From an uncultured Bacteroidales bacterium (GTDB lineage Bacteria > Bacteroidota > Bacteroidia > Bacteroidales > JAGOPY01), in assembly GCA_964567785.1 (NCBI GenBank), contig CAZMOK010000003.1, positions 23,437-87,436 of the forward strand: a stretch of DNA of 64,000 bases, read 5' to 3'. The translations under genes and the position numbers were made by a program. This document shows positions 10,130 to 63,265 of the stretch, piece by piece; within the stretch, counting starts at the first letter, position 1; each line of letters begins with the position of its first letter. The notes beneath the pieces were generated by a model. It saw only the letters and a program-made list of their open reading frames with translations. It was not told where the DNA came from and made no database searches.

Positions 10130-10150
10130 ATTTACTTGAAATTTTGCCAA

Positions 10151-44377: not shown

Positions 44378-44381
44378 ATTT

Positions 44382-45866: not shown

Positions 45867-45869
45867 AGC

Positions 45870-46214
45870 TTACTTATCAGTTTCTTTCAGTTCATCAAGG
45901 TCATCAGTTCCGGTTGATTCAAAAAACTTAAATTTCAATGCAAGTGTATATGCTATAATTCCTAATCCGATAACTACTGCAGTGAGTAAAAGTGCCTGGG
46001 GCAGCGGATCAGCCATTGCAGTGGTTTCAGTTGTATCTTCTGTAACAAAAACAGGGTTCCCGCCAACGGGTGTTGATGCCAGAAAGACCAGCAAATTGGT
46101 GGCATTGCTTATCAGGATTACCCCTATTACAAATTTGAGTATGCTTCTCCGCAGCAGTAAATACACTCCAGCTGTGTAAAGCGTACCAACAAGTATTGCA
46201 AGTATCAGTTCCAT
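45870..46214 (-). CDS. mrpC: Mrp/Mnh antiporter subunit C (NuoK-like)
   Basis: It is 114 aa with three TM helices, and carries YTAGVYLLLRRS. Confidence 0.85.
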   Translation of the reverse strand: MELILAILVGTLYTAGVYLLLRRSILKFVIGVILISNATNLLVFLASTPVGGNPVFVTEDTTETTAMADPLPQALLLTAVVIGLGIIAYTLALKFKFFESTGTDDLDELKETDK

Positions 46215-46630
46215 GGGTCGAAGGTTGTTTTTGAAAATAAAAATGTAAGGGTCACACCGATCACTGTAAAGAATACTCCAACATCAAAAAGAAAGGGAGT
46301 TCCCAGTTTCAGTACCATCCCGGCAGGCATCTGAATTGTTAACCAGTAGCCTTTCATAAAAGATTCAGAAAAAACCATTCCGGGCAACAGGCTGAGAATA
46401 ATAAGCAGAAGCCCCAGGCCAAGATAATTATCAGGTGACGTGAGTAGTTTTTTCCGCGCATATTGTGGATTATAGGCAAGCCCCCTGTATACAACAGATA
46501 GTGCAGCAAGCAAACCTCCGATGAAACCTCCGCCCGGGAGGTTGTGTCCCCGCAACAAAGCAATAATTGCTATGGCTATTAAAAACCACCGAACGTATCT
46601 ATCAGCTATCTGCAGCAAATATGCATTCAT
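46205..46630 (-). CDS. mrpB: Mrp/Mnh antiporter subunit B
   Basis: LRGHNLPGGGFIGGL motif is present. Size is 141 aa. Confidence 0.8.
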   Translation of the reverse strand: MNAYLLQIADRYVRWFLIAIAIIALLRGHNLPGGGFIGGLLAALSVVYRGLAYNPQYARKKLLTSPDNYLGLGLLLIILSLLPGMVFSESFMKGYWLTIQMPAGMVLKLGTPFLFDVGVFFTVIGVTLTFLFSKTTFDPWN

Positions 46631-48933
46631 AGACGTTTGCTTCTTTTACCCAATAAAATAAAAACACCTAAAGCGGCTATTATAAGTACAACAACCTCTC
46701 CCAGGGTATCAAGTGCGCGAAAGTCAACCAAAATTACGTTTACTACATTTTTCCCATATGCTTTAACCAGGCTGTTCTGAATGAAATACTCCGAAACCGG
46801 TGTGATGAGATTAATATCGGTGGCCTGGAGGGCCATCAGGGTCATACCGGTTCCAAAGGTTATGGCAACGGCCAGGTCCCTGTTTTTTATCCATTTTGCA
46901 GATATTCGGGCAAATATCGGCATACGTTGTAAGATGAGAACAAATAAAACAACGATTAGCGTTTCAGCAAGTATTTGGGTAATAGCCAGGTCGATAGCAC
47001 TATAGTAGAGATAAATAAATGCTATACCATATCCAATGACACCCAGTGATATGATTGCTGCAAGCCTCGATCGCGAGAACATGGTCAGTACTGTGGCGAA
47101 AACCATGATCACAGCAATGCCATACAGATAAAAAGGTGCTTCGGTCAGTCTTTCAAATACATTCCAGTTATAGTTAAACAACATTTGTAACCATAACATC
47201 GCAGAAGCAATGAGAAAAAAGGTTAATAAATATATCCTTTGAAAACCATGGTTGACAACCCTGTCTTTCCTGCGCACAAAATCAATAAAGTTGCTGATAC
47301 CCTGCAAAAACACATCGGTAAAATGGAATCTGACAATCTGCCTGGTAAAGTGTTGCCAGCTCAGTAAAAACTGTTTTTGCTTTATTATGGCCACAGCAAT
47401 GGCCGTACCCGTAAAAGCAGTGAACATGCTTAACCATAATACCGGGTTGAACCCATGCCAGAGTGCCAGCTTTACATCTTGATACCCGGGTATTACGTAG
47501 TGAAGCGCACCCTTCAGGATAGAATTGCCTAAATAATCAGGTATCAATCCGGCAACGAGGCTGAACACAGATAAAATTGCAGGAATTAAAAGCATCACCG
47601 GGATATAGCGAGGTTTTGAAATCTGTTTGGTTAACTTATAGCTGCCAAAAAATATGGTGTAAACAAGGTAAAGAGAAACTGTTACCATCAGAATATTGGC
47701 CGTCACACCCAAAACGAGTATTATTCCTGATATGCCTGGTAATTGAATTTGAGCCTCGTATATCAGTTCCTTACCGATGAAGCCCAGCATGGGAGGAAAA
47801 CCGGCCATGGATAAAGCTGCCAGCAATGTTACCAGGAAAGCAATTGGCATTTTACGTACGAGACCGCCCAGATACAGAAGATCCCTGGTTCCTGTCATTT
47901 TTTCTATATAACCAGCGATCATAAACAAAGTGGCTTTGTAGAGTGCATGAACAAATAAAAACAAAATAGCAGCTTTGACCGAAAGGCTTGTGTCAATACC
48001 CACAAGCAATGTCAGTACGCCCAATGCATTGATTGTGGTATAAGCCAGGCTTGCCTTAAGGTCTGTTTGCATGATGGCAAAGTATGCTCCAAAAAGCATT
48101 GTCAGAATTCCGACAAAAGAGATAATATAGTGCCAGGCATCTGTGCCGCCTAAGATTGGCTGCAGGCGCAATAAGAGAAAAAACCCTGCTTTTACCATTG
48201 TAGCCGAATGCAGATAGGCGCTCACAGGAGCCGGTGCCTGCATGGCCCCGGGTAACCAGAAATGAAAAGGAAACTGTGCCGACTTTGTAAAAATACCTAC
48301 CAGGATCAGGATTAAGCCGGGCAGGTAGAGGGGGCTCTCTGTCATGGCTGAAGAGGAATTGATCCAGTCAGATAACTGATAACTTCCGGGGATGGTGCCT
48401 AAGAGGATGATCCCTGCAAGCAGGCTCAAGCCACCCATAACAGTAATGAATAGCGATTGAAAACCGGCTAAACGTGCTGCTTCTTTTTCATGAAAGAAGG
48501 TAATCAGTAAAAACGAGAATACTGTTGTAAGTTCCCAGAATATAAAAAGGAATATGAGGTTTGAAGACAATACCATTCCCATCATGGAAAGGCTGAAAAG
48601 CATCATTAAAAGTAGAAAACGGGTAATATGGGTATATTCCCGCATGTATTCACCGGCGTAAATGAAGATAAAACCCCCCATTCCCATAACCAGTAAAGAA
48701 AAAGCAAGCCCCAGTCCATCGATAGAAAGAGAAAAGTGTATTCCTAAATCAGGTACCCATGGAGCGGTAATGGAAAGGAAGTCGCCCTGCATAACCTGAG
48801 GAATATATGTAAGCAGTAATACTACAACACTCAGTTGAACCAACCCGATGGCAAGTGACCTGTGTTTTTGCCATGGCCGGGGCAAAAAGAGAAAAACTAT
48901 GGGTAACAACAGCAGGATTATCAGTAATGTCAT
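46627..48933 (-). CDS. mrpA: Mrp/Mnh antiporter subunit A (NuoL-like with C-terminal MrpB-like extension)
   Basis: It is 768 aa with KSAQFPFHFWLPGAMQAPAPVSAYLHSATMVKAG. It is the first gene of seven with overlapping boundaries. Confidence 0.9.
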   Translation of the reverse strand: MTLLIILLLLPIVFLFLPRPWQKHRSLAIGLVQLSVVVLLLTYIPQVMQGDFLSITAPWVPDLGIHFSLSIDGLGLAFSLLVMGMGGFIFIYAGEYMREYTHITRFLLLMMLFSLSMMGMVLSSNLIFLFIFWELTTVFSFLLITFFHEKEAARLAGFQSLFITVMGGLSLLAGIILLGTIPGSYQLSDWINSSSAMTESPLYLPGLILILVGIFTKSAQFPFHFWLPGAMQAPAPVSAYLHSATMVKAGFFLLLRLQPILGGTDAWHYIISFVGILTMLFGAYFAIMQTDLKASLAYTTINALGVLTLLVGIDTSLSVKAAILFLFVHALYKATLFMIAGYIEKMTGTRDLLYLGGLVRKMPIAFLVTLLAALSMAGFPPMLGFIGKELIYEAQIQLPGISGIILVLGVTANILMVTVSLYLVYTIFFGSYKLTKQISKPRYIPVMLLIPAILSVFSLVAGLIPDYLGNSILKGALHYVIPGYQDVKLALWHGFNPVLWLSMFTAFTGTAIAVAIIKQKQFLLSWQHFTRQIVRFHFTDVFLQGISNFIDFVRRKDRVVNHGFQRIYLLTFFLIASAMLWLQMLFNYNWNVFERLTEAPFYLYGIAVIMVFATVLTMFSRSRLAAIISLGVIGYGIAFIYLYYSAIDLAITQILAETLIVVLFVLILQRMPIFARISAKWIKNRDLAVAITFGTGMTLMALQATDINLITPVSEYFIQNSLVKAYGKNVVNVILVDFRALDTLGEVVVLIIAALGVFILLGKRSKRL

Positions 48934-49284
48934 ATCCTTTTCCTAAGGAGCAAACAAATCCCTTTAATGCAAATATGCAAAAAAGGTAAGTAACTTTTAC
49001 TATTTGAACCAAACATACTTTCTTCTTAAATGTTTCTTCCCGTATCCGGGAAATTTTTCAAAACAACTTTTTCTTGATGACTTTCAATAGAAGCTGGGCA
49101 ATAAGGGTGCGTCTCACCTGGATATATATGGTGTTGAAATTTTCATCTAAAATATAATGTAACTGGAAATTTTGCTAGAGGGGGGAGTAGCCCCTGCTTG
49201 AAAAATTTGGTCGGTCAGCAATGAAAGTTAATCTGATTTGCGGCCTGGAACAGGATCATGAGGTAAGTGCTTCCCCGGACCCTG

Positions 49285-50298
49285 TCACAGCAGTTCAATA
49301 TTTTCATCCCAAATTCTCTGCCAGAGTCTCTTTAATGGTTCGATACTGTCAGATGCTTCAGGCTCAAATTCTTCAACCCTGGCAGGAATTATACCAACAG
49401 AACTCTTTTTACCAACCACAAAATTGAAAAAATAGAGTCCGCTTACGCCCATTCTTATATCGGTTATTACAATTTTATCATCCACAGCGCTCACCTTGTA
49501 AAAACCCCCTGTGAACCATTTCAGTCGTTTTACATTCCAATCATCGGCAATTGGCTTTATAAGCTCGATTTCCGAAGGGTATTCCTTGAATTTTATCTCT
49601 TTCGTTTCATCCAGTACAGAGTAGAACCCTTCAACATAGCCGCTTTCAGTATTGCCAATTATCCTCCATAACAAGGTATTAAACGGAGTTGGGCCTACCA
49701 GGGTTTTGGATACTTTAATATTCTGTTCAGACAGTGATTTTTCAGCAACTGAATGCACATATGCTTTTGCACCTATGCTCCAGACCAGGTACAAACTGCT
49801 CACGAGTATTCCTATCCTGTGTATCTTAAGTGCGAGGGCTGGTTTTTTCCTCAAGAAAAATAGTGATGCTAATCCAGCAAGCAAAGGAGTTGTATACAGA
49901 GGATCGATAACAAATATCGTGCTCCAGCCTACCGGATGGTTCGAGAAGGGGAGGAGCAACTGAGTTCCATAAACATTGAAACTGTCGAGCAGTGCATGTG
50001 TTATGAAGGTCAGGAAAACCGCAAAAAGCCACCTGACCCTATACTTTTTTGTTTTAGGGTGTATTTTCGTGATCAGCCAGGCCACTAAAGGCGCTGCGAG
50101 GGCCATATAGAAAAAAGCATGGCTCTCTGCCCTGTGATACGTGAAATCCTTTACGGCATTTCCCATAGGGATAAACACATCCAGGTCGGGCAGGGTACCG
50201 CAGACTGCACCCCACAAAGATGCTTTGCGCCCAACCTTATTTTGCATCACTGCTTCCGAAACGCTGGCCCCTAAAACGAGTTGTGTTAATGAATCCAT
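49285..50298 (-). CDS. membrane-bound metal-dependent hydrolase (YdjM/DUF457-like) with extra C-terminal domain
   Basis: MDSLTQLVLGASVSEA..LPDLDV..H.. signature is present in the N-terminal TM region. Confidence 0.7.
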   Translation of the reverse strand: MDSLTQLVLGASVSEAVMQNKVGRKASLWGAVCGTLPDLDVFIPMGNAVKDFTYHRAESHAFFYMALAAPLVAWLITKIHPKTKKYRVRWLFAVFLTFITHALLDSFNVYGTQLLLPFSNHPVGWSTIFVIDPLYTTPLLAGLASLFFLRKKPALALKIHRIGILVSSLYLVWSIGAKAYVHSVAEKSLSEQNIKVSKTLVGPTPFNTLLWRIIGNTESGYVEGFYSVLDETKEIKFKEYPSEIELIKPIADDWNVKRLKWFTGGFYKVSAVDDKIVITDIRMGVSGLYFFNFVVGKKSSVGIIPARVEEFEPEASDSIEPLKRLWQRIWDENIELL

Positions 50299-50404
50299 GA
50301 CCCCTGTAACCTTGATAGAAGCTTTAAAGGAACAACTTACAAACTCTTACTTTTGAATTACTGCATGCAGACTTTTAATAAGCAATTTGCTCCGATCTCT
50401 GATT

Positions 50405-50782
50405 TCATTGAATGCTTAGCAGGAGTATTGCCACTGATAGTATGAGCATGAAAAGCGCAGGCAGATGAGTCGTTAATTTATCATGGACCTTTATATGCAT
50501 GGCAACTGCGCCAAGCATAAGTACAATCAGTGCTCCTGCGGCAAATGGGATAACAATGGGCACCCAAATACCAATGATCAAACCAATGGCTGCTGCAACC
50601 TTCAAAATTCCAACAACATACATAAGCCAAACAGGTAATCCATAGTATTCAAATTCTCCGCGTAATGTTTTGGCCTTGCCGTCACCACCCCTGTATATAC
50701 TGGCTCTCTGATTTGTTACCAGCCAGATCCGGAGGATGTTCAGCGCCACAAATAATTGCAGTACAATGAGAAATATATTCAT
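50405..50782 (-). CDS. DoxX family membrane protein
   Basis: It is 125 aa with four TM helices. The pattern is typical of DoxX-like proteins. Confidence 0.7.
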   Translation of the reverse strand: MNIFLIVLQLFVALNILRIWLVTNQRASIYRGGDGKAKTLRGEFEYYGLPVWLMYVVGILKVAAAIGLIIGIWVPIVIPFAAGALIVLMLGAVAMHIKVHDKLTTHLPALFMLILSVAILLLSIQ

Positions 50783-50914
50783 AGATTTTTTGATTTTACT
50801 ATTAGCCCTTGGCGGATTTCAGGTTGCTAAGTTAAACATTCCAGGAATTTGTTTGTTCGAAATGCTCCTCTGATTTTAATTACCAATGAACGCCTTTAAG
50901 CCTGTATCCGTATC

Positions 50915-51013
50915 CATCCCCCCGGGTACCCTCCCTACCGGCTTTGCTTCACTGAAGCTTCGCGAAAGCAATTTAGGGAGGCGGGAAGTGCGATAGCAAG
51001 GGGGGAGGGTAAC
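50915..51013. other. GC-rich nested-stem element in an otherwise AT-rich 694-bp intergenic region
   Basis: TACCCTCCC (50927-50935) pairs with GGGAGGGTA (51003-51011). This outer stem encloses GCTTC-ACT-GAAGC (50946-50958) and the competing GCTT-CGCGA-AAGC (50957-50969). Confidence 0.4.
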
Positions 51014-51476
51014 AAATCCGCTAAAACCCCATATTCCGTTTTACTTCACACTTCACGCTTCCAGTTGTTTTCATTGTTCATTGTTAATTACCCTAACACC
51101 CATATTTGTGTAAGCGCTTACTTCACTGTTTTTTATACAATGTTGTAGGTTCGTGTTTGATAAAGTCATTTAATATGATATTCCTTTTAATATATGTCAG
51201 CAGGTTTTTTCCTTCATTTTTAACAACTTCCAGATAAATTATTAAATCCTTAAGACCATAATTCCATTTGAAACTGCTTTATTTCTTATTAATCTTAATT
51301 CACCGCTGATTTTTAATTGTTGGATGGTTCGGTAATTAGAAACAAAAGATTTTATGTCCAGGTTTTTTATTATATTCTTGCAATTGTTCACGTCAAAACT
51401 CTGCCAGAAATCCGCAAAACACAGCAAGAAAAAGAATTAGGAATTCAAAGAAATAGTGCTGGATCTTTTTCCCGGA

Positions 51477-53177
51477 CTAATTATACAGATTATGAGCACG
51501 GGGAGCCATATTTTCAGATTCAACAACAGGATCATTTTTATCAGATGGTTTATCTGATTCATGTTTTGCCAGAAGGTTTTTAAAATATTTAACGACAGGC
51601 CCGAAATCCGGACCTTTTCCCCTCAGGGCAATGTAACCGTCAGGCCTGGCCAGAAAGTAGGTTGACTTGCGGATGTGTAACTTACGAAACAGCTCCTTTG
51701 TCTCTTTGGAGTGTGAAACTGCTTCAAATTGCATGGGGAAAGTGAACCCGTCTAGTTGTGATCGCAAAGCTTCTTCGGCCTCTTGCCGATCTGGTTCGCC
51801 TGTCCGGAAAAATACAAGGGTGAACTTCCTGCATTCCAGCAATTCATGTGTATCTTTCAAATTCCCGTTTTCATCAGTCCATTCGATAAAAGGAAATCTT
51901 TTTCCTGTCCACGATGTTGCCCTTCCATAGTGTACTCCGGTCTGTGATATCCTTCTGAAGAATGCCCGTTGAAGTGATCGTGACGCCAAAAGAGAATTGA
52001 AAAGTTTGAACGACCAGGGAATTAGATGGTTGCGGACCAGCTTGCTTGTGAAATCTTTTCTTATTGCCAGGGAGAAGTACCTGTCTGTACTCTGGATCAG
52101 CTTTTCAGCAACAGGCTTTCTTTCCAACGTATAAGTTTGTAACAGGCTTTCAGATGCCCCGTGCTTTAAAACATATGCCATCTTCCAGGCCAGGTTACAG
52201 GAATCCTGTAACCCGGTATTCATACCCTGAGCACCAATAGGGGTATGTACATGTGCAGCGTCCCCGACCAGGAAGCACCTGCCGCTGTTAAAAGTTGATG
52301 CCAGGTAGGTGTTTGGAAAGAAAACCGAAAACCAATCGGGGTTTTTCAAGACTACATTCATTTTCAACCTCACTGCAAGGCCCCGGGTAGCATCTTCAAA
52401 ATCAAATTCCCTTTTACCGGCTTTCTCATTAGGGATCAAACTGTCGATGCGCCAGCTTGTACCTTCCAGCGGGAAGAATCCCGCAATGCTTTTTTTCGAT
52501 ATGCTGAAGATGATATCGTTACCGGGTTTACCGATTGAAGCTGTGCCTGCCATCTCTTCAACACCTGGGTATTTATTAACGAGGCAATCAGTGACAAACA
52601 GGGGGATAGGATCTCTCGTTCCTTCCCAATGGATCCCAAGGCTTGTCCTTACATCACTATGGATCCCATCAGCCCCGATCAAATAACGTGCTTTCAGAGT
52701 TTCCTTTTTCCCGTTTGCCCTGGTGAAGGCAGCAGTTACAAATTGTGATTCCTGGCTGAATTGCGCTAGCCGTGTGCCCCTTTCAACCTGAATGCCACGC
52801 TCTTCAAGGAAACCGGAGAGCAACTTCCTGGTATGCGTTTGTTTCAGCATGAAAATGTATGGAAACCTGCTAATCCCCGAACCCATATTTGCTACACTGA
52901 TATCTCCTGTTTTTCTGCCTTCATGGATCACGCTGATCTTTTCAACCACCTTCCCATTTTGCAAGACTTTATGAGCCATTCCCATCTGGTCGAATATCTC
53001 CATTGTGCGGGCCTGGATGAGAAGGGCGCCTGAAAACTTATGGTTCTCTTCTGTCTTCTCAATGATCCTGAAGCTGATATTGTGGAGTGCAAGCTGGCAG
53101 GCCATCATAAGTCCGGCAGGCCCGGCGCCCACGATCAATACATCTGTAATCTTTGGCTTGTCAGAATTTTCAATCAT
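51477..53177 (-). CDS. FAD-dependent aromatic-ring monooxygenase (PheA/TfdB-like, with C-terminal thioredoxin-like domain)
   Basis: The motifs are DVLIVGAGPAGLMMA, GADGIHSDVR and GDAAHVHTPIGAQGMNTGLQD. Confidence 0.88.
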   Translation of the reverse strand: MIENSDKPKITDVLIVGAGPAGLMMACQLALHNISFRIIEKTEENHKFSGALLIQARTMEIFDQMGMAHKVLQNGKVVEKISVIHEGRKTGDISVANMGSGISRFPYIFMLKQTHTRKLLSGFLEERGIQVERGTRLAQFSQESQFVTAAFTRANGKKETLKARYLIGADGIHSDVRTSLGIHWEGTRDPIPLFVTDCLVNKYPGVEEMAGTASIGKPGNDIIFSISKKSIAGFFPLEGTSWRIDSLIPNEKAGKREFDFEDATRGLAVRLKMNVVLKNPDWFSVFFPNTYLASTFNSGRCFLVGDAAHVHTPIGAQGMNTGLQDSCNLAWKMAYVLKHGASESLLQTYTLERKPVAEKLIQSTDRYFSLAIRKDFTSKLVRNHLIPWSFKLFNSLLASRSLQRAFFRRISQTGVHYGRATSWTGKRFPFIEWTDENGNLKDTHELLECRKFTLVFFRTGEPDRQEAEEALRSQLDGFTFPMQFEAVSHSKETKELFRKLHIRKSTYFLARPDGYIALRGKGPDFGPVVKYFKNLLAKHESDKPSDKNDPVVESENMAPRAHNLYN

Positions 53178-53899
53178 TATCTGCTGTGTGTGCTGTTCGA
53201 TCGACCGGTAAGGATAAACCGGAATCCCATTGCAGTTCTCAGATCATAATCCGGTACTTCAGCCTCCGCCAGTAAATCCTTGATCTCATTTATCCTGAAT
53301 CCCTTCAGGACAGATACAGGCCCGTCATGCCTTGCCAGTGATGTTCCGTTTCCCAGCCGGGTCAGGATTATGGAACCATAATATGCTAACCGGTTGCGTA
53401 AAATGTCACTGATCACGAATCCATGCCTTGAATGTTCTTTAAAATGTAAGAAAAGCTCAAGCAGATCTTGGTTTTCCAGATGGTGGGCAAACAACGAACA
53501 GTGATAAACATCCACCTCCTCATTCGCCGAAAGGTACTCCTTGTAGGATGTATCTATTCCATCTATCTCGGGATAATCCTTACAGTACTCCCGGAGATAG
53601 GCTATGATATCGGGGTTATTGTCTATCCCGGTAAACCTTGCAGGGATTTGCTTATTCCTGGCCCACTTTGCCATATATTTTAATGTATCGCCGCTGCCAC
53701 AGCCCAGGTCAACTACATGTAACGGATCATTGCCGGCAGGCAGGAGCCTGTCCAAAGCCCTGATACTGAGTTGATGGCCGAAAGTTTTCCGGTTCAGGAA
53801 ATCCAGTTCCCGAAGGTTTCTGTAAAGCAGGTCCCTGGGTACATCAGGATTGTCCATCAGTTCAGGCTGGTATGACCGGTCAGTAAATTTACTTGCCAT
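53177..53899 (-). CDS. class I SAM-dependent methyltransferase
   Basis: Motif I is VVDLGCGSGDTL. Size is 240 aa. It overlaps both neighbouring genes. Confidence 0.85.
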   Translation of the reverse strand: MASKFTDRSYQPELMDNPDVPRDLLYRNLRELDFLNRKTFGHQLSIRALDRLLPAGNDPLHVVDLGCGSGDTLKYMAKWARNKQIPARFTGIDNNPDIIAYLREYCKDYPEIDGIDTSYKEYLSANEEVDVYHCSLFAHHLENQDLLELFLHFKEHSRHGFVISDILRNRLAYYGSIILTRLGNGTSLARHDGPVSVLKGFRINEIKDLLAEAEVPDYDLRTAMGFRFILTGRSNSTHSR

Positions 53900-54971
53900 A
53901 TGAAAGTAGGGAAGTCTCTATGCTCAGTCCGGGCCCGAAGCCCACGCTGAAAATCTTTTCACCATCCCGGCCCGGGGATTCAAGAAATCTTTTCAGGACA
54001 AATAATATGGTTGGTGACGACATGTTACCGTAATCCCTCAGAACGCCATAGGAGTTTCCCAGCAATTCTTTGTCGATCTTAAGGTTATGGCTTACCTCGT
54101 CAAGTATTTTCTTTCCTCCGGGGTGTATGGCCCAATGGCTGATGTCGTTTTTTGCGATTGCATAATGTGCCGCAGCTTTTTCCAGGATCCGGTTAACCTC
54201 CTTGCCGATAAAAACAGGTACCCGGGTGTTCAGTATCATCTCGAAACTGAGGGGGTTGATATCCCATCCCATCAGGTCCCAGCCCTCGTGGAGCAGAAGG
54301 GAATAGAAACCTTCAATGGTGAGGCCCGGGAAGGGTGCTTTATCCGACATCAGCAGAACCGAGGCGGCCCCGTCACTGAACAGCGTGTTGGACAGCAGGT
54401 TGTCGGTGTTGCCTTTTGGCTGAAAATGCAGCGTGCAAAGTTCAACTGAAACTATCAATACTTTAGCTGTCGGGTCGTTATTTATGATAAGGTCTGCTAT
54501 CTTCAGAGCATAGAATGCCGCGTTGCACCCAAGGAAATTTACCGCTGTGTGGGATATGTCCTCACGCAATCCAAGCTCCCTGATCACTTCTGCTGAAAGC
54601 CCGGGGGCATGCAGTCCTGTGCAGGTCACCGTAATAAGGTGTGTGATCTCATCGATCGCTGTACCGCTTGGCTCCAGCGTATTTTTTATTGATTCCAGCG
54701 CAAGCCCGGGCGCATTCTCTTTATATTGGCCCATGCGGTCCTCAACATCCGGCTGGGTTTCCCGGTGCCTGAAAAAGACCGGTTGGAAGTCCATGCCAAA
54801 ATCAGGCACCACAGAGTAGCGTTTTTCAATACCGCTCTGGTGTGCCAGCACCCTGAGTTTCCTGAAATCAGTCTTGTCTGAATAGGCTTGCTCCATAAAG
54901 TCAAGGATCTCCGACTGACTGGCTGAGTATTGCGGGGATGCAGTCCCTATGGATATGATTTTCGAAGGCAT
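53889..54971 (-). CDS. type III polyketide synthase (chalcone/stilbene synthase family)
   Basis: The catalytic Cys/His/Asn contexts are TVTCTGLHAPG, WAIHPGGKKILD and GNMSSPTILFVL. The C-terminal FGPGLSIE is present. Confidence 0.92.
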   Translation of the reverse strand: MPSKIISIGTASPQYSASQSEILDFMEQAYSDKTDFRKLRVLAHQSGIEKRYSVVPDFGMDFQPVFFRHRETQPDVEDRMGQYKENAPGLALESIKNTLEPSGTAIDEITHLITVTCTGLHAPGLSAEVIRELGLREDISHTAVNFLGCNAAFYALKIADLIINNDPTAKVLIVSVELCTLHFQPKGNTDNLLSNTLFSDGAASVLLMSDKAPFPGLTIEGFYSLLLHEGWDLMGWDINPLSFEMILNTRVPVFIGKEVNRILEKAAAHYAIAKNDISHWAIHPGGKKILDEVSHNLKIDKELLGNSYGVLRDYGNMSSPTILFVLKRFLESPGRDGEKIFSVGFGPGLSIETSLLSYGK

Positions 54972-54972
54972 A

Positions 54973-55878
54973 TTAAACTCCCTGTAGTGTATTGATTATA
55001 ACTAATATCAAAAAGTAAATGTTCATGCTTGCCGATGAGATCAGGTTCATCGACATGGTATTCCGGAAGTTTGCCTGCCCGGTATCCTTCCTGACTTTCG
55101 CAAACCATGCAGACATCCTTAAGCCCATTACAATGATGAACGGCACGAAAAGCCAGATGGCAAAGAGCATCGTGTTGCTCCAGAAATAATAAGCCATAAG
55201 GACTGTCCCTATTGCAAAGAGTATTCCCGAAAATATAAAAGTGCCGTTATAACCCAGCTTGTAACTTAAGCTGATCACCCCGTCATTCTTATCACTCTCA
55301 TGCTGATAGATCTGGGTGAGGGGATAAACGCTTCCGATAAACATGCTGGATATGACCATACAAAGGATACCGGATGGGTTGAAGAGCTCTGCCAATGGTT
55401 TTCCTGTGATTGCCAGGGATGATGTCAGGAAGATGAAACCTCCCTGGAAAATAAAAACGATAGCAAAAGCCAGGACCGGGTACTTTTTGAATCGAAGGCC
55501 ACGGTAACTGTACGCTCTTGACATAATGATAAAGACCAGGACCAGGCCCGAAAAAACAGGTGAAATAAGGAATCCAAGCAGCACTGCCAGCAAATCGAAG
55601 GTAATAGTCGTATAATACAGATTACGCGTTACAGAAGGCGGGTCTTTCAATCCCCCTATGCTGGTTTCGTCCTTGTCCTGGTAGCTGTTGTAACCATTGC
55701 TTGAGGGGAAGACCAGTAGATGCAGGATGATAAATGCAAGCATTGCATCGAACCAGATAATAGTATCTGCCTGGCTTAAGGCAAACATAAAGACCGGTAA
55801 CAGGAAAAACGAAAAGGGAAACCTCAGGTGTTTTACTGTACTCAAATCAGGGATGAAATATGATCTTGAACTGCCCAT
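54973..55878 (-). CDS. UbiA-superfamily aromatic prenyltransferase
   Basis: It has about eight or nine TM helices and the Asp-rich motifs NGYNSYQDKD and QHESDKNDG. Confidence 0.85.
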   Translation of the reverse strand: MGSSRSYFIPDLSTVKHLRFPFSFFLLPVFMFALSQADTIIWFDAMLAFIILHLLVFPSSNGYNSYQDKDETSIGGLKDPPSVTRNLYYTTITFDLLAVLLGFLISPVFSGLVLVFIIMSRAYSYRGLRFKKYPVLAFAIVFIFQGGFIFLTSSLAITGKPLAELFNPSGILCMVISSMFIGSVYPLTQIYQHESDKNDGVISLSYKLGYNGTFIFSGILFAIGTVLMAYYFWSNTMLFAIWLFVPFIIVMGLRMSAWFAKVRKDTGQANFRNTMSMNLISSASMNIYFLILVIINTLQGV

Positions 55879-55954
55879 CTCTTAAAGCGCTATCATTGAA
55901 ACAGATGCCGGCGCATAAAGTTCATAAACAGGATGTCAGAGTGAAAACATGATC

Positions 55955-56503
55955 TCACCGGGGATTGCTGGTTTCCAATACACAGATAATTTCCAGCTCT
56001 ACTGTTTTGCCAACCAGGAATCCACCCGAAGGACCCACACCGTAGTCTGTCCGGTTGATTTCGAGGGAGCCCTTAAGCCTGTTATCCTGCACAACAAATG
56101 GTATGGTCACTTCCCTGCTGACCCCTTTTAGAATCAAGGTCCCTGTGGTTAGAAAACCTTCATCAGTTTTAATGATATCATCAGAACTGAAACAAATACC
56201 GGGATATTTTTCAACGTTGAAGTAGTCTTCTTCAAGCAATTCCTCGTCCCTTGCCGAAATGCCGGAGTTTATAGTAGCAGGGTCGATGCATACCCGGAAA
56301 GAGCTTTTGCTCATATCCTCCGGATCGAAAACTACTGAACCTTCAAACCCTTTAATAGTCCCATCGACCATGTTTATGCCCAGATTGGATATTTCAAAAG
56401 TCACTAAAGAGCTGTTTTTATTAATATCCTGGGAAGTACCTCGAAACGGATTTGAAAGTGCTATTATCAAAACCAATATGAAGTGATGAATACTTATTTT
56501 CAT
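55955..56503 (-). CDS. YceI family (polyisoprenoid/lipid-binding) periplasmic protein
   Basis: A signal peptide is followed by the YceI pattern: SSLVTFEISNLGINMVDGTIKGFEGSVVFD, ISARDEELL, YFNVEKYP, GTLILKGVSREV and INRTDYGVG. Confidence 0.85.
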   Translation of the reverse strand: MKISIHHFILVLIIALSNPFRGTSQDINKNSSLVTFEISNLGINMVDGTIKGFEGSVVFDPEDMSKSSFRVCIDPATINSGISARDEELLEEDYFNVEKYPGICFSSDDIIKTDEGFLTTGTLILKGVSREVTIPFVVQDNRLKGSLEINRTDYGVGPSGGFLVGKTVELEIICVLETSNPR

Positions 56504-56861
56504 TTGTCAGGATGCTAACTGGTTTCCTATAAACAAAAAAAACCTATTATAGTTCTCTGAAACAGATAATTAAGTTTCTACGCACAATTTGGATCTGTAC
56601 CGGTTATTGTTCGATGTTACTTCTTATGCCCATGCAAAAACGGATTTTTGCGGGAAGTGCTGATCACAACATGTTATTTAGGCTTGAAAGTCTGAACTGG
56701 GTAAGGATTGCCCTGTCACTTTGCAAAGGCCATATTACGTTTTCCTGGATATAAGTATCATAATATCAACCACTTAAAGAGACCGAAAAAATAATTCCGT
56801 TAAATTTACTTTTTTTGTTTTTTTAACACCAGCGCGGTGAACGGAAAATCAGAGTTTTTAA

Positions 56862-57019
56862 CTCCAGGGAGCGAAGTCCGGAGACTTTGCTCCCCGGGGG
56901 ATTTTCGCGATTAACCTTAGCGGCCAGTGGCGCTTCCGCCGGTGGGGACTGTTGGCTGGCAGTGTGGCTAACGCACACTCATCACTGAGCGAATAAACCC
57001 GGCAAGGAAGTAACTTCCA
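56862..57019 (-). other. cluster of four GC-rich hairpins between the propeller-protein stop and yceI
   Basis: There is a 12-bp stem at 56867-56878/56883-56894 with one G-U and a UCCG loop on the minus strand, extendable to 56862-56899. Further hairpins lie at 56924-56945, 56961-56979 and 57007-57019. Confidence 0.5.
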
Positions 57020-57033
57020 GATATGGTGAAAAT

Positions 57034-58824
57034 CTATCTTATGGTATAAAACTTCAGAATCGAGTCCTTTTTGTCATCTGCACGAAGAAAATGATCAAGC
57101 TCGGGTGAAAATATTGTCATATCAGCGATTTCTATCTCATCCACCATTTTCTGATCTTGGATATTAATGGCAAATATGTTTCCGGATTTAAATACATTGC
57201 CTTCAGTGATAACCAGTATGTATTCAGGCGTCCATAATGCCCTGTTAACTGATTTGATTTTGACTCGATTTTCGAAATTCCCATCGCGATCATAAAATGC
57301 CACACCTTCTGAACCAACCATTATTAGGCCATCAGGTAAAAGATCCATAGCCTTCAATTCTCCAACCTTTGCTTTCTTGGTTTTGACCGCTTTTGCTTCG
57401 GTGAGGTCATTCTTATTCAGGAAGTGCAACCTTTTTTTACCGTTATGAATGACGTATTTTTCGCTAATGAAAAGCCATGGCTTTCTTTCATCCACCATAA
57501 GATTCTGCTTGATTTTAACCGGCCCGGCGGTCACTTCTCCTGATTTTTTGCTCAAATTCATAAAGAAATTTTTGCCTATCCCAAATTGCTTAATCACTAT
57601 ATTATTTTCTGATAGCCCGCAGATTTCAATTTCGGAATCCATCATATCACTCTTCCATAATTGTTTACCTGACTTAATGTTGTAAGCACTTACCCACTTC
57701 TCTTTGGTATCACCTGAACTTCTGCTGTAGTAAAAGTTTTCTTTGTCAAACCACGCGTTAGATGGATATATAAAGTCTTTTTCTGCTTTAACTGCCTTGA
57801 TTTGAGTACTTTCCTCATATTCGTCTTTTGGGATTACTTCATAAAGCATCTCATCTGTCCCAAGATCATAAGCTTCGATGCCGAAGCCATCAATAAGGTA
57901 CATATTATCAATAAAGCTGATTTGATTTTCTGTAAAGTCCCCTTTGTAGTCTACCATTGCTATTTCTTCACCGCTTTCTAGATCAAGCCTGACCAGGTAG
58001 CTTTCACTTTTTAAGAAAAAGTTTGGGCTGTAGTTGGAAAGAAAGACATCATCATGCCCGGGTATCATTGTAACCTCTCCAATTTTCAATGGCCTTTCAT
58101 CATAGTTCCATTCTTCTTCACCAGTCATTTTATTAATACTGCTGATACCGTCCTTATGGGTTAACAGAAAACAATCTGTACCTGGCATCGGTGAAATAAA
58201 CGCTTTTGCCCGGACATTCCCCGTACCTTCCCTACTATGCATATCGGAATGAATCGACCGGAAAGCCTCTGCTCCCATAATACTTGCCATAGACAGGGAC
58301 TCATTTGCCACAGCCGTAAGTGCAGAAGCTGCCAGAACAGCAGCCAATTGACCATCTTTACCGGGAGTGTAGCGATAGCCGGTTTGCTCCCATATTTTCT
58401 CACCCGTAGATAGATCATATCCCAGTACAATATTGTTATCCAGGTTCCAATCCAGCACGATCATAATATTATCATCCTCAAACATCCAGAATGCTGAACC
58501 TTCATCCAACTTAATATTTTCTAACATTGAACCGATCTTACCCCCAAAAATATCCGCTCCAAGACCTGCCTTCGTGTTTGCCTTGGGAATGCAATCATAG
58601 GTGAAAATTTCCCGGCCTGCGTCATCTATTAATTTTACATATTCCTCCGTGGCTATAACCAAATATTTTCCGGATGGAGTAATGGAAAATTCAGCTGTGA
58701 CGCCATCCAAAAATTTCATAAATGATCTATCAATTTCATGCTCGAATACCTTATCAAATTTTTGAGAATGTACCAAACCAGAAATTAAGAAAAAAAGCAA
58801 AAGCAAAAAGTTTTTTTTCTTCAT
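57034..58824 (-). CDS. secreted beta-propeller-like repeat protein (PQQ/BamB-like G-x-x-x-W repeats)
   Basis: It has the signal peptide MKKKNFLLLLFFLISGLVHSQ. Recurrent motifs are DLSTGEKIWEQ, NKMTGEEEWNY and NIKSGKQLWKS. Confidence 0.6.
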   Translation of the reverse strand: MKKKNFLLLLFFLISGLVHSQKFDKVFEHEIDRSFMKFLDGVTAEFSITPSGKYLVIATEEYVKLIDDAGREIFTYDCIPKANTKAGLGADIFGGKIGSMLENIKLDEGSAFWMFEDDNIMIVLDWNLDNNIVLGYDLSTGEKIWEQTGYRYTPGKDGQLAAVLAASALTAVANESLSMASIMGAEAFRSIHSDMHSREGTGNVRAKAFISPMPGTDCFLLTHKDGISSINKMTGEEEWNYDERPLKIGEVTMIPGHDDVFLSNYSPNFFLKSESYLVRLDLESGEEIAMVDYKGDFTENQISFIDNMYLIDGFGIEAYDLGTDEMLYEVIPKDEYEESTQIKAVKAEKDFIYPSNAWFDKENFYYSRSSGDTKEKWVSAYNIKSGKQLWKSDMMDSEIEICGLSENNIVIKQFGIGKNFFMNLSKKSGEVTAGPVKIKQNLMVDERKPWLFISEKYVIHNGKKRLHFLNKNDLTEAKAVKTKKAKVGELKAMDLLPDGLIMVGSEGVAFYDRDGNFENRVKIKSVNRALWTPEYILVITEGNVFKSGNIFAINIQDQKMVDEIEIADMTIFSPELDHFLRADDKKDSILKFYTIR

Positions 58825-59641: not shown

Positions 59642-60604
59642 TTATTCCATGCTTTTCAGGTATTTGTAAAGTTCGCTATCAGTTGTAAGGATAATGGTGG
59701 TGGTGGAATCGAATGTATTTTCAAAGGTTTCCATACTTTTAATAAAGCTGTACAATTCTCTTGAGCTTCTTGATTTATTGTAAGCGCGCGCATAAATGCT
59801 TGCAGCCTCAGCGTCCGCTTTCCCTTTAATTGTTTCAGCTTCCTTATATGCTTCCGACTGTATCTGATTCAATTCACGTTCTTTTTCTCCGTTGATCCTT
59901 GAGGCTTCGCCCTCACCTTCAGACCTGAATTTATCGGCAATACGGATCCGCTCGCTCTTCATACGGTCGTAAACCCGTTCTCTGACATCCTCAACATAAT
60001 TGATCCGTTTAAACCGGAAATCAAGTATTTCGATGCCTAAATCTTTTGTCTCTTCATTAGCAGTTTTCTGGATAATATTCTGGATTCTTTTTCTGCCCAC
60101 CTCGATCCTGGCAAGAGAATCCTCGATTATTTCACTTATTTTAGCTGTGGTGTCGGCCTGCCGGTTGGTGTTCCTTACAACCTCTTCCAGACTGTGACTG
60201 GCTACCTGGTCGCGGGTTTCGCCATCAATTATATCGTCGAGCCTGCTTTGGGCACCCCGTTCATTGGTAAGGCGTTTATAAAATTGCAGTGGATCGGTAA
60301 TATGCCAGCGGGCATAGCTGTCAACAAAAATGAATTTTTTTTCCTTCGTAGGGATCTGATTGGGATCGCCGTCCCATTCCATATAACGTTTTTCAAAAAA
60401 ATTTGCTTTTTGAACAAAAGGAGTTTTGATTTTCAAGCCGGGTTCGGTCACGGCATCACCGATTGGCCTTCCAAATTGGGTTACCACAACCTGTTGGGTT
60501 TCATCAACAATGTAAATACTTTGAGATAAAACAATAATGCCGGCAATGATAATTGCTGCAATCAGTAATATTTTATTTTGCTTTTTCATTGTCATTCGTT
60601 TCAA
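59642..60604 (-). CDS. hflC: FtsH protease modulator HflC (SPFH/band-7)
   Basis: An N-terminal TM helix is followed by IYIVDETQQVVVTQFGRP..EPGLKIKTPFVQK..TKEKKFIFVDSYARWHITDP, which parallels E. coli HflC. Confidence 0.88.
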   Translation of the reverse strand: MKRMTMKKQNKILLIAAIIIAGIIVLSQSIYIVDETQQVVVTQFGRPIGDAVTEPGLKIKTPFVQKANFFEKRYMEWDGDPNQIPTKEKKFIFVDSYARWHITDPLQFYKRLTNERGAQSRLDDIIDGETRDQVASHSLEEVVRNTNRQADTTAKISEIIEDSLARIEVGRKRIQNIIQKTANEETKDLGIEILDFRFKRINYVEDVRERVYDRMKSERIRIADKFRSEGEGEASRINGEKERELNQIQSEAYKEAETIKGKADAEAASIYARAYNKSRSSRELYSFIKSMETFENTFDSTTTIILTTDSELYKYLKSME

Positions 60605-60623
60605 AAAATTGGTGTTATGCAGC

Positions 60624-61589
60624 TTATTTTAATGTCTTTTTAAGTAGAGGAATCATGTTGTTGCCATCCTCTGAAGTAATGATCTTATCTCCCAGTTTAG
60701 GAATAACCAGTTGCATGGTTTCAAGGTAGATTCTTCTTTTGGTTACTTCGGGCGCTCTGATGTATTCGTTGTAAAGGGCATTAAATCTGGCCACTTCTCC
60801 CTGGGCATTGTTTACGCGCTTGGTAGCGTAACCCTTTGCTTTTTGAATGGTTTCTTCAGCCTGTCCCCGGGCCCGCGGGATTACCTTGTTGTATTCCGAT
60901 TTAGCCTCGTTTATCAGGGTTTCCCTTTCCTGCTGTGCTTCGTTTACTGCATTGAATGCCTGTTTTACCGACTCCGGTGGATTGATATCCTGAAGCACTA
61001 CCTGGGCTATTTCAATACCCAGTGAATATTCCCTGGTCATTTCCTGCAACAGAACTTTAACCTCGCTGGCAATTTCAGCTCTTCCAACAGTTAATACTTC
61101 GTTAACGGTCCGGTCGCCTACAATTTGCCTTGTGATAGCTTCGGAAAGATCACGAAGGGTGTTATCGGGGTTGCGCACCTTGAACAGGTAATTGTAAGGA
61201 TCGCTTACGCGGTATTGTACAACCCACTGAACATTAGCCAGGTTTAAATCGCCGGTTAGCATTACGGCCTCGTCTTTAGTGACGGAACCTGTGCGGCTAT
61301 AAGTTGTTCTGACCCCGGCTTGCCGGGTGCGAAAGCCAAATTCCTGCTTTTTTTGTCTTTCTACAGGCACCTTATAAACTTTTTCCATAAAGGGTATTTT
61401 CATTTTCAAACCGGGAGTAACCGTCCGTACATGTTTACCGAAACGTGTTACCACTGCCTCTTCTTCGGTGCCTACCTGGAAAAATGAATTAAATCCAAAA
61501 ATTAAAAGCACTATTGCAATGAGTACTGGTTTGTAATACTTTTTTATTAATTGTTGAATTTCATCTGTATTGAACTCCTGATTATCCAT
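60624..61589 (-). CDS. hflK: FtsH protease modulator HflK (SPFH/band-7)
   Basis: A TM helix is followed by VGTEEEAVVTRFGKHVRTVTPGLKMKIPF and a coiled-coil tail. It lies directly upstream of hflC. Confidence 0.88.
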   Translation of the reverse strand: MDNQEFNTDEIQQLIKKYYKPVLIAIVLLIFGFNSFFQVGTEEEAVVTRFGKHVRTVTPGLKMKIPFMEKVYKVPVERQKKQEFGFRTRQAGVRTTYSRTGSVTKDEAVMLTGDLNLANVQWVVQYRVSDPYNYLFKVRNPDNTLRDLSEAITRQIVGDRTVNEVLTVGRAEIASEVKVLLQEMTREYSLGIEIAQVVLQDINPPESVKQAFNAVNEAQQERETLINEAKSEYNKVIPRARGQAEETIQKAKGYATKRVNNAQGEVARFNALYNEYIRAPEVTKRRIYLETMQLVIPKLGDKIITSEDGNNMIPLLKKTLK

Positions 61590-61798
61590 ATTTATTTATT
61601 TATCTTTTAAGAATCTGTTAATATACAACTAATAATGTGGTTTGGGAATGAAACTGTGTTATATTTTCAATCTTTCGAAAATGGTGCGGGCAATGTGAAG
61701 GGATGGTTATGGACCGGGCTGGCTGCTGGTGCGTTTGTTAGCTTCTGATACTGATAAAGAGTAACAAAATACTGTGCAATCATAAAAGTGATTTTTAT

Positions 61799-61969: not shown

Positions 61970-62030
61970 TGCCACGTTTGTGTCTTAATAATTACCACCA
62001 CTTACACGGTCTGTTTCATATTTTGGTCAG

Positions 62031-63173: not shown

Positions 63174-63265
63174 ATTGTTTCCTTTTATATATAAAAACCA
63201 CTCATTTCATTTTTTGTTCACTGCATTTCACAGAACATCCCCGGCGAAGGTACCGGCCGGATAGA

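Follow-up and report, generated by a model that had tools for sequence, protein, structure and literature searches.

The agqABCD cluster of Actinoplanes missouriensis, described by Awakawa et al. in 2011 (cited through PMC10896814, PMC7692728 and PMC4044012), directs the formation of alkyl-O-dihydrogeranyl-methoxyhydroquinones. The alkylresorcinols made by AgqA are prenylated and hydroxylated (PMC10896814), and the agq prenyltransferase catalyzed O-prenylation of a small polyketide in vitro (PMC4044012). In the srs and pkq operons, a polyketide synthase (PKS) gene is followed by a methyltransferase gene and then by a hydroxylase gene, giving alkylquinones (PMC9927152). The cepAB products of 'Entotheonella' yielded long-chain alkyl resorcinols and pyrones in vitro (PMC7064976), and expression of the PKS from the loseolamycin (los) locus of Micromonospora endolithica yielded non-prenylated alkylresorcinols (PMC7587189). 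An operon variant from 'Saltatorellus ferox' has a gene for a lipid/isoprenoid-binding protein upstream (PMC10896814). In phenolic-lipid synthases, the position held by Trp281 in ArsB and Gly284 in ArsC is the determinant of resorcinol versus pyrone formation (PMC7064976).

The window analyzed here, a 64,000-nt stretch of a contig from an uncultured Bacteroidales bacterium, contains five genes that bring together such functions (Table 1). The ORF map reproduced all figures of the initial annotation: five co-directional minus-strand ORFs with gaps of 76 nt between yceI and ubiA (55879-55954) and 1 nt between ubiA and the PKS gene (54972), and with overlaps of 11 nt between the PKS and methyltransferase (MT) genes (53889-53899) and 1 nt between the MT and monooxygenase (FMO) genes (53177). 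All five proteins scored above the Pfam gathering score. Their spacing suggests that the five genes are co-transcribed, and the 530-nt upstream region is the probable promoter region of the operon. This region had no Rfam match; a strongly structured stretch within it (approximately 56855-56995), just past the upstream gene, has a minus-strand fold z-score of -4.1 (equalled by 0 of 200 shuffled sequences) and is possibly the terminator of that gene. The 694-nt downstream region, beyond which lies a DoxX_2 gene, had no Rfam match, repeat family or significant structure. A scan for sigma-70 promoters and terminators gave hits at chance level, the sigma-70 model being unsuited to Bacteroidota. 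That the locus belongs to this phylum, as first proposed, is confirmed by the names of the nearest PKS homologues (Bacteroidetes, Bacteroidia or Bacteroidales) and with a Por_Secre_tail (type IX secretion) gene on the same contig. The absence of an acyl-AMP ligase and an ACP was likewise borne out, both within the operon and among the adjoining genes. We consider it reasonably likely that the operon makes a prenylated, methylated and ring-hydroxylated phenolic lipid of the alkylresorcinol type, which would be an alkyl-methoxy-hydroquinone or quinone bearing an isoprenoid group.

Table 1. Genes and intergenic regions of the operon (positions in the window)
Feature	Position	Strand	Basis
YceI-family protein, 182 aa	55955..56503	-	ORF map + Pfam
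UbiA-superfamily prenyltransferase-like protein, 301 aa	54973..55878	-	ORF map + Pfam
Type III polyketide synthase (PKS), 360 aa	53889..54971	-	ORF map + Pfam
Class I SAM-dependent methyltransferase (MT), 240 aa	53177..53899	-	ORF map + Pfam
Class A FAD monooxygenase (FMO), 566 aa	51477..53177	-	ORF map + Pfam
Upstream intergenic region, 530 nt	56504..57033	-	ORF map, sequence
Downstream intergenic region, 694 nt	50783..51476	-	ORF map, sequence

The PKS matches Pfam Chal_sti_synt_N (95 bits) and Chal_sti_synt_C (73.5 bits), and its translation contains the triad Cys149 (GCNAAF), His283 (WAIHPGG) and Asn316 (YGNMSS). These residues, together with Trp236, are invariant in 81 of 81 Bacteroidota PKS homologues. 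Trp236 aligns with Leu266 of PKS18, which is the ArsB Trp281 position; the PKS thus carries the resorcinol-forming Trp and is predicted to be an alkylresorcinol (or resorcylic acid) synthase. This cytosolic enzyme would draw its starter, a fatty-acyl thioester, from the primary pool and would add three malonyl units, after which an aldol condensation steered by Trp236 would give an alkylresorcinol or alkylresorcylic acid. The lipid could also be built in reverse, with a resorcinol head made from a short starter, a polyprenyl tail added by UbiA, and methylation and hydroxylation leading to an isoprenoid benzoquinone, which might act in the membrane as an auxiliary carrier of electrons or as an antioxidant, much like the polyketide quinones of mycobacteria and Streptomyces except that it would be prenylated. 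We regard this as unlikely. The combination of a ring synthase with UbiA, MT and hydroxylase does parallel the logic of ubiquinone and plastoquinone synthesis, polyketide quinones from PKS-MT-oxidoreductase operons are electron carriers (PMC9927152, PMC10896814), and the conservation of the cassette in both aerobic and facultative members of the Bacteroidota suggests that its role is physiological and not tied to a niche. The operon also lacks a dedicated acyl-activating enzyme, and the nearest solved structures (Steely1, Ectocarpus PKS1, M. marinum 7cb3 and PKS18) include, in the first two, enzymes that are not strictly long-chain. However, the characterized bacterial type III PKSs with the Trp determinant take long-chain acyl starters (PMC7064976), the neighboring genes offer no consistent respiratory context, and the only characterized UbiA-type partner of such a PKS, that of agq, adds a short geranyl group.

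The UbiA protein matches Pfam UbiA (55.9 bits; cut-off 34.2), has about 8-9 hydrophobic segments and carries two acidic motifs, N61GYNSYxD68xD70 and D196xxD199G. Across 74 homologues, N61GYNSYxDxD and YPLTQIYQHxxDxxDG are kept, with a spacing of NxxxDxD / DxxD versus the canonical NxxxDxxxD / DxxxD. Compared with the PDB, the family profile found only ApUbiA (4od4, E 2e-4). The initial annotation had allowed that this gene might be a housekeeping MenA/UbiA orthologue. We rejected this possibility: the protein reached no NCBIfam equivalog cut-off, those of the MenA and UbiA models included, the MenA models gave weak matches to just 4 of 26 family members, and the subfamily comprises 696 matching clusters among 1.84 billion. 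The subfamily is distinct, small and sharply delimited, and is devoted to the cassette with the type III PKS. UbiA and PKS form a single polypeptide of 652-672 aa in four Dyadobacter genomes or loci and in six independent assemblies. Since the subfamily is remote from all characterized members and its motif spacing is unusual, prenyl transfer to the polyketide is proposed on the grounds of family membership, fusion and synteny. UbiA, which is a membrane enzyme and in the window is coupled to the PKS at the level of translation, would use a prenyl diphosphate as donor to prenylate the phenol, through an O- or C-link.

This divergence, together with the srs/pkq-like order of the PKS, MT and flavoenzyme genes and the occurrence of PKS-less UbiA homologues with other partners (loci L175 and L176), leaves some room for an operon that makes non-prenylated alkylresorcinols or alkylquinones, in which UbiA might anchor the PKS to the membrane or provide a scaffold for it, act on another acceptor, or be a UbiA-type cyclase. 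We think this quite improbable. Every member of the family keeps the acidic diphosphate/Mg-binding motifs unchanged, which favors catalysis over scaffolding; coupling of UbiA to PKS is near-obligate and reciprocal, extending to direct fusion; and in the agq system, which offers a precedent, exactly such a scaffold is prenylated.

Conservation of the cassette was followed in two sets, 80 species-level GTDB genome loci anchored on the PKS and 64 metagenome loci anchored on UbiA. The order UbiA-PKS-MT-flavoenzyme was found in 74/80 of the former, and the PKS lies directly downstream of UbiA in 60/64 of the latter. The flanking genes change from locus to locus, and the arrangement therefore recurs far beyond chance. 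Synteny in relatives, whose loss had been raised as an argument against the operon, is instead strong, and these data show a four-enzyme core conserved across Bacteroidota.

The MT gene follows the PKS gene in 72/80 genome loci and 40/47 metagenome loci. The MT matches Methyltransf_25 (43.8 bits) as well as other families, and over its full length NCBIfam PRK06202 (128 bits, under the cut-off of that model); motif I reads VVDLGCGSGD, and its homologues keep GCGxGD, HH and other residues. It would place a methyl group on the ring or on a hydroxyl. The FMO matches FAD_binding_3 (253 bits, residues 11-363) and, slightly under the cut-off, Rng_hyd_C (24.4 bits), a C-terminal thioredoxin-like ring-hydroxylase domain. 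It contains GAGPAG, GADG and GDAAH, and 15 orthologues conserve GAGPxG, ADG and GDxAH..P.GAQGMNTG. In the PDB it is closest to angucycline/aromatic polyketide oxygenases and to rifampin monooxygenase. It is a full-length class A flavoprotein monooxygenase of aromatic rings, of the PheA/TfdB/PgaE type, and is predicted to hydroxylate a phenol to a hydroquinone, which could be oxidized to the quinone. Conservation of catalytic and cofactor residues, the PKS triad among them, is consistent with the earlier impression that the enzymes are functional. The 566-aa FMO holds the fourth position in 15 genome and 10 metagenome loci; in most relatives this slot is taken by a 380-aa flavoenzyme resembling the GG-reductase family, to which the PheA/PgaE-type FMO is a clade-specific alternative. 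The 380-aa enzyme might reduce the prenyl chain instead of hydroxylating the ring, so the FMO of the window may not be a like-for-like replacement.

The YceI protein (Pfam YceI, 114 bits) has a signal-peptide-like N-terminus (MKISIHHFILVLIIALSNPFRG) without a lipobox Cys and is predicted to be a secreted or periplasmic protein that binds lipids or polyisoprenoids. Relatives with PKS identities of 86, 82, 65 and 65%, each with different flanks, have a co-directional YceI gene ahead of UbiA, as do two further loci; relatives with 57-63% PKS identity lack it. Four other loci have YceI in different layouts. At least four layouts were seen in which it accompanies the cassette, and at L175 it adjoins a PKS-less UbiA homologue. 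YceI is thus a lineage-specific operon leader, confined in that role to the subclade of the window; of the five-gene set first described, the UbiA-PKS-MT-flavoenzyme core is conserved and YceI and the large FMO are lineage-specific. YceI would serve as a carrier or chaperone that binds the isoprenoid lipid once it is outside the cytoplasmic membrane. Absence of YceI from most homologous loci is what speaks for a chance adjacency of the genes, with UbiA as a housekeeping enzyme or YceI unrelated, but this is very improbable and for the four-gene core largely refuted by the synteny despite changing flanks, the UbiA-PKS fusion and the lack of a MenA match, and YceI itself is kept in four independent contexts within the subclade.

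Altogether, Trp236, the phylum-wide synteny, the fusion and the distinction of UbiA from MenA lend in silico support to the prenylated phenolic-lipid reading first put forward. Within it the starter unit, order of tailoring, prenyl donor, attachment site, final product, its location and its physiological role are likewise putative. A characterized Bacteroidota product of such a cassette was not found in the searchable literature, in agreement with the initial annotation.

Among the described systems, cepAB resembles the window in its PKS-MT pair (1-bp gap or 8-bp overlap) and in the Trp at the ArsB-281 position of its PKS (PMC7064976), but consists of two genes, without prenyltransferase, hydroxylase or YceI. 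In the actinomycete los locus, too, a type III PKS gene has neighbors that encode a methyltransferase and a prenyltransferase of the UbiA family, with an acyl-CoA dehydrogenase gene where the flavin monooxygenase would be (PMC7587189, gene table). The hidABC operon of picocyanobacteria and the planctomycetal MT-oxidoreductase-type III PKS operon share the PKS-MT-flavoenzyme part and its tailored alkylresorcinols (PMC10896814), and in the 'Saltatorellus ferox' variant the binding-protein gene lies upstream; unlike the window, they come from different phyla, have the opposite order with the PKS last, and lack UbiA. As had been proposed, srsABC of Streptomyces griseus, like pkqABC of Mycobacterium smegmatis and Streptomyces sp. 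MNU77, has the same order of PKS, methyltransferase and flavin oxidoreductase/hydroxylase as the window, and its PKS is of the resorcinol type and carries the conserved Trp (PMC9927152). These operons have neither a UbiA-family gene nor YceI, whereas the window has both and a 566-aa PheA/PgaE-type hydroxylase with a C-terminal domain. By gene content, the closest known system is agqABCD, the other precedent originally named, which shares four enzyme classes with the window: a type III PKS for alkylresorcinol, a UbiA-like prenyltransferase of the membrane that acts on the polyketide, a methyltransferase and a monooxygenase. That cluster is actinomycete, with no YceI gene reported, whereas the window is from Bacteroidota and encodes YceI; and unlike in agqABCD, UbiA here lies immediately before the PKS, 1 nt away, the two being fused in Dyadobacter.

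The ORF map reproduced exactly the five co-directional minus-strand genes of the initial annotation (see the table), the first two junctions being gaps of 76 and 1 nt and the last two overlaps of 11 and 1 nt. Intergenic regions of 530 nt upstream and 694 nt downstream isolate the operon. All five products scored above the Pfam gathering score for the family claimed, and none was assigned by NCBIfam as a known equivalog. The expected Bacteroidota context was borne out, the nearest PKS homologues coming from Bacteroidetes/Bacteroidia/Bacteroidales MAGs and a type IX secretion-tail gene lying on the same contig. Judged by sequence, the locus shows every feature tested for the general kind, bacterial type III PKS phenolic-lipid operons.

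Features of the operon, of its flanks and of the YceI arrangements at relatives' loci (L-numbers)
Feature	Location	Strand	Remark
YceI	55955-56503	minus	ORF map
UbiA-family protein	54973-55878	minus	ORF map
Type III PKS	53889-54971	minus	ORF map
Methyltransferase (MT)	53177-53899	minus	ORF map
FAD monooxygenase (FMO)	51477-53177	minus	ORF map
Mrp-type multi-subunit cation/proton antiporter operon, YdjM membrane protein, DoxX_2	~43500-50300 side (DoxX_2 50405-50782)		ordinary flanking genes
HflK/HflC-like Band_7 pair, universal stress protein, type IX secretion-tail protein	59642-63962		ordinary flanking genes
YceI-UbiA-PKS-MT-flavoenzyme	L059, L155
UbiA divergent from YceI-PKS-flavoenzyme-MT operon	L170:1173-5861
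Partial divergent layouts, YceI next to UbiA	L151, L153, L148		shorter contigs
YceI downstream of flavoenzyme	L135
YceI antisense nearby	L062, L063, L076

The PKS matched both Chal_sti_synt domains (N-terminal, 95 bits; C-terminal, 73.5 bits; cut-offs 27), and its best NCBIfam score, on DpgA, was far under cut-off. Its nearest solved structures were Steely1, Ectocarpus PKS1, an M. marinum enzyme and PKS18, with plant chalcone synthases more distant. The Cys149, His283 and Asn316 triad was invariant in an alignment of 16/16 database homologues and, together with Trp236, in 81/81 homologues from species-level genomes. In a HMMER alignment, Trp236 stands opposite Leu266 of M. tuberculosis PKS18. 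This position (Trp281 in ArsB, Gly284 in ArsC, Leu266 in PKS18) has been proposed as the one that chiefly decides whether phenolic-lipid synthases form resorcinols or pyrones (PMC7064976), and the same tryptophan argument has been made for pkq-type enzymes (PMC9927152). Since Trp236 occupies the position of ArsB Trp281, the window PKS is predicted to be a resorcinol-forming enzyme.

The methyltransferase keeps motif I (GCGxGD) and other family-invariant residues; its best NCBIfam match, PRK06202 at 128 bits, was under cut-off. The monooxygenase carries a full-length FAD_binding_3 domain (253 bits, residues 11-363), and its GxGxxG, DG and GD motifs are conserved in 15 orthologues. A C-terminal, thioredoxin-like Rng_hyd_C domain reached 24.4 bits against a cut-off of 27.5, and the closest solved relatives in a PDB search were aromatic polyketide oxygenases and rifampin monooxygenase. 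By its FAD_binding_3 domain, motifs and solved relatives the 566-aa protein is classed as a PheA/TfdB/PgaE-type (class A) aromatic hydroxylase. The PKS triad, methyltransferase motif I and the flavin motifs being kept, the enzymes look functional, as first proposed.

Conservation of the locus was examined by scanning one genome per GTDB species with a PKS alignment, which gave 592 confirmed relatives, of which the best 80 loci were kept; the locus census combined tblastn with the window proteins and independent ORF clustering. Among these best 80 of 592, UbiA immediately preceded a co-directional PKS in 74 (the remainder comprising two divergent, one downstream, one absent and two truncated loci), the methyltransferase came directly after the PKS in 72, and a flavoenzyme took the fourth position in 73. 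In the reverse test, metagenome contigs were scanned with a UbiA alignment; among loci with enough sequence, the PKS was directly downstream of UbiA in 60/64 and the methyltransferase in place in 40/47. The genes flanking this four-gene core, here called the cassette, vary from locus to locus. Synteny seen from both directions, together with changing flanks, shows that the cassette is a self-contained unit, and the synteny in relatives on which the initial reading depended (UbiA-PKS in 74 of the best 80 of 592 genome relatives and in 60 of 64 metagenome loci) is thus present. None of the window's own flanking genes is kept beside the cassette in relatives. As the initial annotation held, neither an acyl-AMP ligase nor an ACP gene occurs in or near the window cassette, and in the neighbourhoods of the window and relatives' loci neither these nor isoprenoid-synthesis genes were consistently present.

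Cassettes were found in Bacteroidales/Prolixibacteraceae, Chitinophagales, Sphingobacteriales and Cytophagales, and cultured carriers include Dyadobacter spp., Ginsengibacter hankyongi, Segetibacter koreensis, Ferruginibacter paludis and Pinibacter soli. Typical Bacteroidota-type cassettes were also seen in two MAGs labelled 'Spirochaetia bacterium' (L027) and 'Bifidobacteriaceae bacterium' (L068); these labels probably stem from contaminated bins or wrong naming and do not mean that the cassette occurs in other phyla. Prolixibacteraceae/Mariniphaga-like loci recurrently have a small membrane protein, c17 (~150 aa, weak DUF4267 match), behind the cassette; its gene comes immediately after that of the FMO in L009, L019, L025 and L028 and after that of the methyltransferase in L010. 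The window's DoxX_2 gene was considered as the equivalent of the c17 that follows the FMO in six relatives and rejected for lack of similarity, and is therefore not counted in the cassette.

The fourth gene occurs in two forms. A ~380-aa flavoenzyme is present at 58 genome loci (best 80 of 592 relatives) and 23 metagenome loci, and a PheA/PgaE-type protein of 515-566 aa at 15 genome loci (same best 80 of 592) and 10 metagenome loci; all PheA/PgaE-type fourth genes fall in the Bacteroidales/Prolixibacteraceae/Mariniphaga-like clade. The two forms are not orthologues, identity being 21% over the Rossmann-containing (FAD fold) part only. The best NCBIfam match of the ~380-aa form (e.g. L008:~9080-10240) was TIGR02032, the geranylgeranyl-reductase family, at 98.6 bits and so under cut-off, followed by weaker UbiH/QhpG-type matches, and it could be either an SrsC-like hydroxylase or a prenyl-chain reductase. 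In the latter case, the product of the window's clade would differ in its tailoring.

The UbiA-family protein reads as a polytopic membrane protein, with ~8-9 hydrophobic segments, and scored 55.9 bits on PF01040 against a gathering score of 34.2. An assignment as the housekeeping MenA/UbiA, which would have undone the initial reading, was rejected: no MenA/UbiA NCBIfam model matched the window protein at E<=1e-3, so that no equivalog score was reached and only generic prenyltransferase models matched, weakly, and MenA models matched at most 4 of 26 family members, also weakly. A phmmer search with the protein against 1.84 billion cluster representatives gave 696 relatives at E<=1e-3 and 201 at E<=1e-30. 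The single sequence found nothing in the PDB; the family profile matched Aeropyrum UbiA alone (ApUbiA 4od4, E 2e-4), and tblastn against 72,556 plasmids gave no match. By these searches the family is a small subfamily, sharply separated from mainstream UbiA enzymes. Its acidic motifs, N61GYNSYxD68xD70 and Y185PLTQIYQHxxD196xxDG, are invariant within the family. This invariance suggests that the protein is likely functional, but the spacing of the motifs (N64xxxD68xD70 and D196xxD199) is not the canonical one (NxxxDxxxD and DxxxD).

The strongest functional link for the UbiA protein is a natural fusion. In Dyadobacter sp. 32, UbiA and the type III PKS form a single 652-aa polypeptide (WP_149244224.1, P0122), found in six independent assemblies, and fused single ORFs of 654-672 aa occur at three further Dyadobacter loci (L069:7065-9083, L071:7125-9089 and L078:7125-9089). 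At a sister locus (L072, Dyadobacter sp. CY356), UbiA and PKS are two separate overlapping ORFs. In the Dyadobacter fusion the last hydrophobic segment runs into the first PKS strand with almost no linker, which would place the PKS at the membrane, beside the UbiA active site. This arrangement argues that the polyketide may be handed directly to the UbiA enzyme.

Distant members of the subfamily showed other architectures. Four (P0209, P0210, P0214 and P0248; 36-41% identity) share a conserved ~210-aa C-terminal extension with no Pfam match. In MAG GCA_038322885.1 (L175:6001-8081), an extended UbiA homologue is followed by an overlapping YceI gene, with no type III PKS nearby. At L176:6001-8763, a UbiA-subfamily domain and a YdbH-like intermembrane lipid-transport domain were called as one 920-aa protein (P0270), directly upstream of ynbE-like (Lipoprotein_19) and ydbL-like (DUF1318) genes; P0270 could be either a genuine fusion or two genes merged in calling.

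YceI scored 114 bits on PF04264 (gathering score 23.7), and its N-terminus looks, by eye, like a signal peptide. The initial annotation placed YceI at the head of the gene set. This stands for the window and for relatives at 86, 82, 65 and 65% PKS identity, whose genomic contexts all differ, but not for relatives at 57-63% PKS identity or for most of the distant loci, from which YceI is absent. Elsewhere it takes several layouts (see the table), directly adjoining the PKS in L170 and L151. In a published planctomycete-related type III PKS operon, too, the first gene encodes a lipid/isoprenoid-binding protein (PMC10896814). Taken together, these layouts, the YceI gene beside the PKS-less UbiA homologue of L175 and the planctomycete-related operon show that YceI is linked to the cassette chemistry recurrently yet facultatively. 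The link may lie with the UbiA/isoprenoid side of the pathway.

The interval that separates yceI from the PQQ_2-like gene upstream holds a GC-rich, strongly structured stretch (56855-56995, minus strand; MFE -55.8 kcal/mol, z = -4.1, 0/200 shuffles folding as well), part of which is a long perfect hairpin (~56866-56898). The stretch matched nothing in Rfam, has no second copy within the window and may be the terminator of the PQQ_2-like gene. Downstream of the operon, where the sequence is AT-rich, a second GC-rich island (50895-51035) folded no better than shuffled sequence (z about -0.6 to -0.9) and showed no repeats and no Rfam match. Scans of 50300-57200 for sigma-70 promoters and intrinsic terminators gave counts equal to shuffled controls, the sigma-70 consensus being the wrong one for Bacteroidota. 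Rfam gave no match in the operon region at E<=1 or in the whole window at gathering scores, and no tRNAs were found. When both intergenic flanks were searched for repeats and compared by blastn with the window and every locus, no repeat family and no mobile-element signature emerged.

A pathway can be proposed from the families, residues, synteny and fusion observed. The PKS would be primed with a fatty acyl-CoA or acyl-ACP from primary metabolism, and three malonyl extensions with Trp236-directed aldol closure would yield an alkylresorcinol or resorcylic acid. SAM-dependent methylation and flavin-dependent hydroxylation would then give a hydroquinone or quinone, to which the UbiA-family enzyme would transfer a prenyl group, and YceI would bind the lipid outside the cytoplasmic membrane. 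The scheme is presumptive as to substrates, order of steps, O- or C-linkage of the methyl and prenyl groups, chain lengths, cellular location and physiological role. The phenolic-lipid interpretation is supported in silico, with the product lipid itself still inferred. We also put forward, as an unlikely extension, that Bacteroidota as a phylum make an undescribed, chorismate-independent, polyketide-derived prenyl-(hydro)quinone by way of a membrane-tethered PKS-prenyltransferase machine (fused in Dyadobacter); this would serve beside menaquinone as an auxiliary redox lipid, either electron carrier or membrane antioxidant, with YceI proteins as its periplasmic chaperones.

Few biosynthetic loci are flagged in Bacteroidota as often as type III PKS clusters, which account for 10.7% of the BGCs of 2,680 Flavobacteriaceae genomes (PMC10734526), and phenolic lipids have been suggested for the PKS of a Cytophagaceae-like symbiont (PMC7313196). 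In the full-text literature open without subscription, we found genome-mining mentions alone and no functional study or reported product of the Bacteroidota cassette, which agrees within that coverage with the earlier statement that no characterised product of this arrangement was known in the phylum. Our survey shows that the phylum's main version of the type III PKS is a fixed cassette, in which a resorcinol-type PKS is the near-obligate partner of a distinctive UbiA-family enzyme and in some cases forms one polypeptide with it. From such a fixed UbiA-PKS unit one would expect a conserved prenylated phenolic lipid in a phylum that matters in soil, ocean and gut environments. If confirmed, this would bring to Bacteroidota physiology a new class of membrane or envelope lipid, possibly redox-active, define a new functional subfamily of UbiA enzymes, and offer a concrete candidate ligand for YceI proteins, few of which have a known one. 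Phylum-wide conservation, the PKS-prenyltransferase fusion and the lack of a product in the literature covered make the cassette a good, directly testable target, with cultured carriers at hand.

Among known systems, the closest by gene content, as described in citing papers, is agqABCD of Actinoplanes missouriensis, which according to these encodes an alkylresorcinol synthase, a monooxygenase, a methyltransferase and a UbiA-like O-prenyltransferase (PMC10896814, PMC7692728, PMC4044012). The window has all four enzyme classes, contiguously, so the agq-like content proposed at the outset holds. The proposed srs-like order of PKS, methyltransferase and flavin hydroxylase is equally found: the window mirrors the PKS-MT-flavoenzyme order of srsABC/pkqABC (PMC9927152) in co-directional genes with 11-nt and 1-nt overlaps, the likeness being one of gene order. 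hidABC and planctomycetal operons have the same three enzymes as the window in another order (PMC10896814), cepAB shares the PKS-MT pair and the tryptophan (PMC7064976), and the Micromonospora endolithica loseolamycin (los) locus, like the window, has a UbiA-family gene near a type III PKS (PMC7587189). The locus is thus no surprise in kind. It is best filed as an agq/srs-like phenolic-lipid operon in Bacteroidota, whose own features are a divergent, dedicated UbiA subfamily, the exchange of the hydroxylase and the leading position of YceI.
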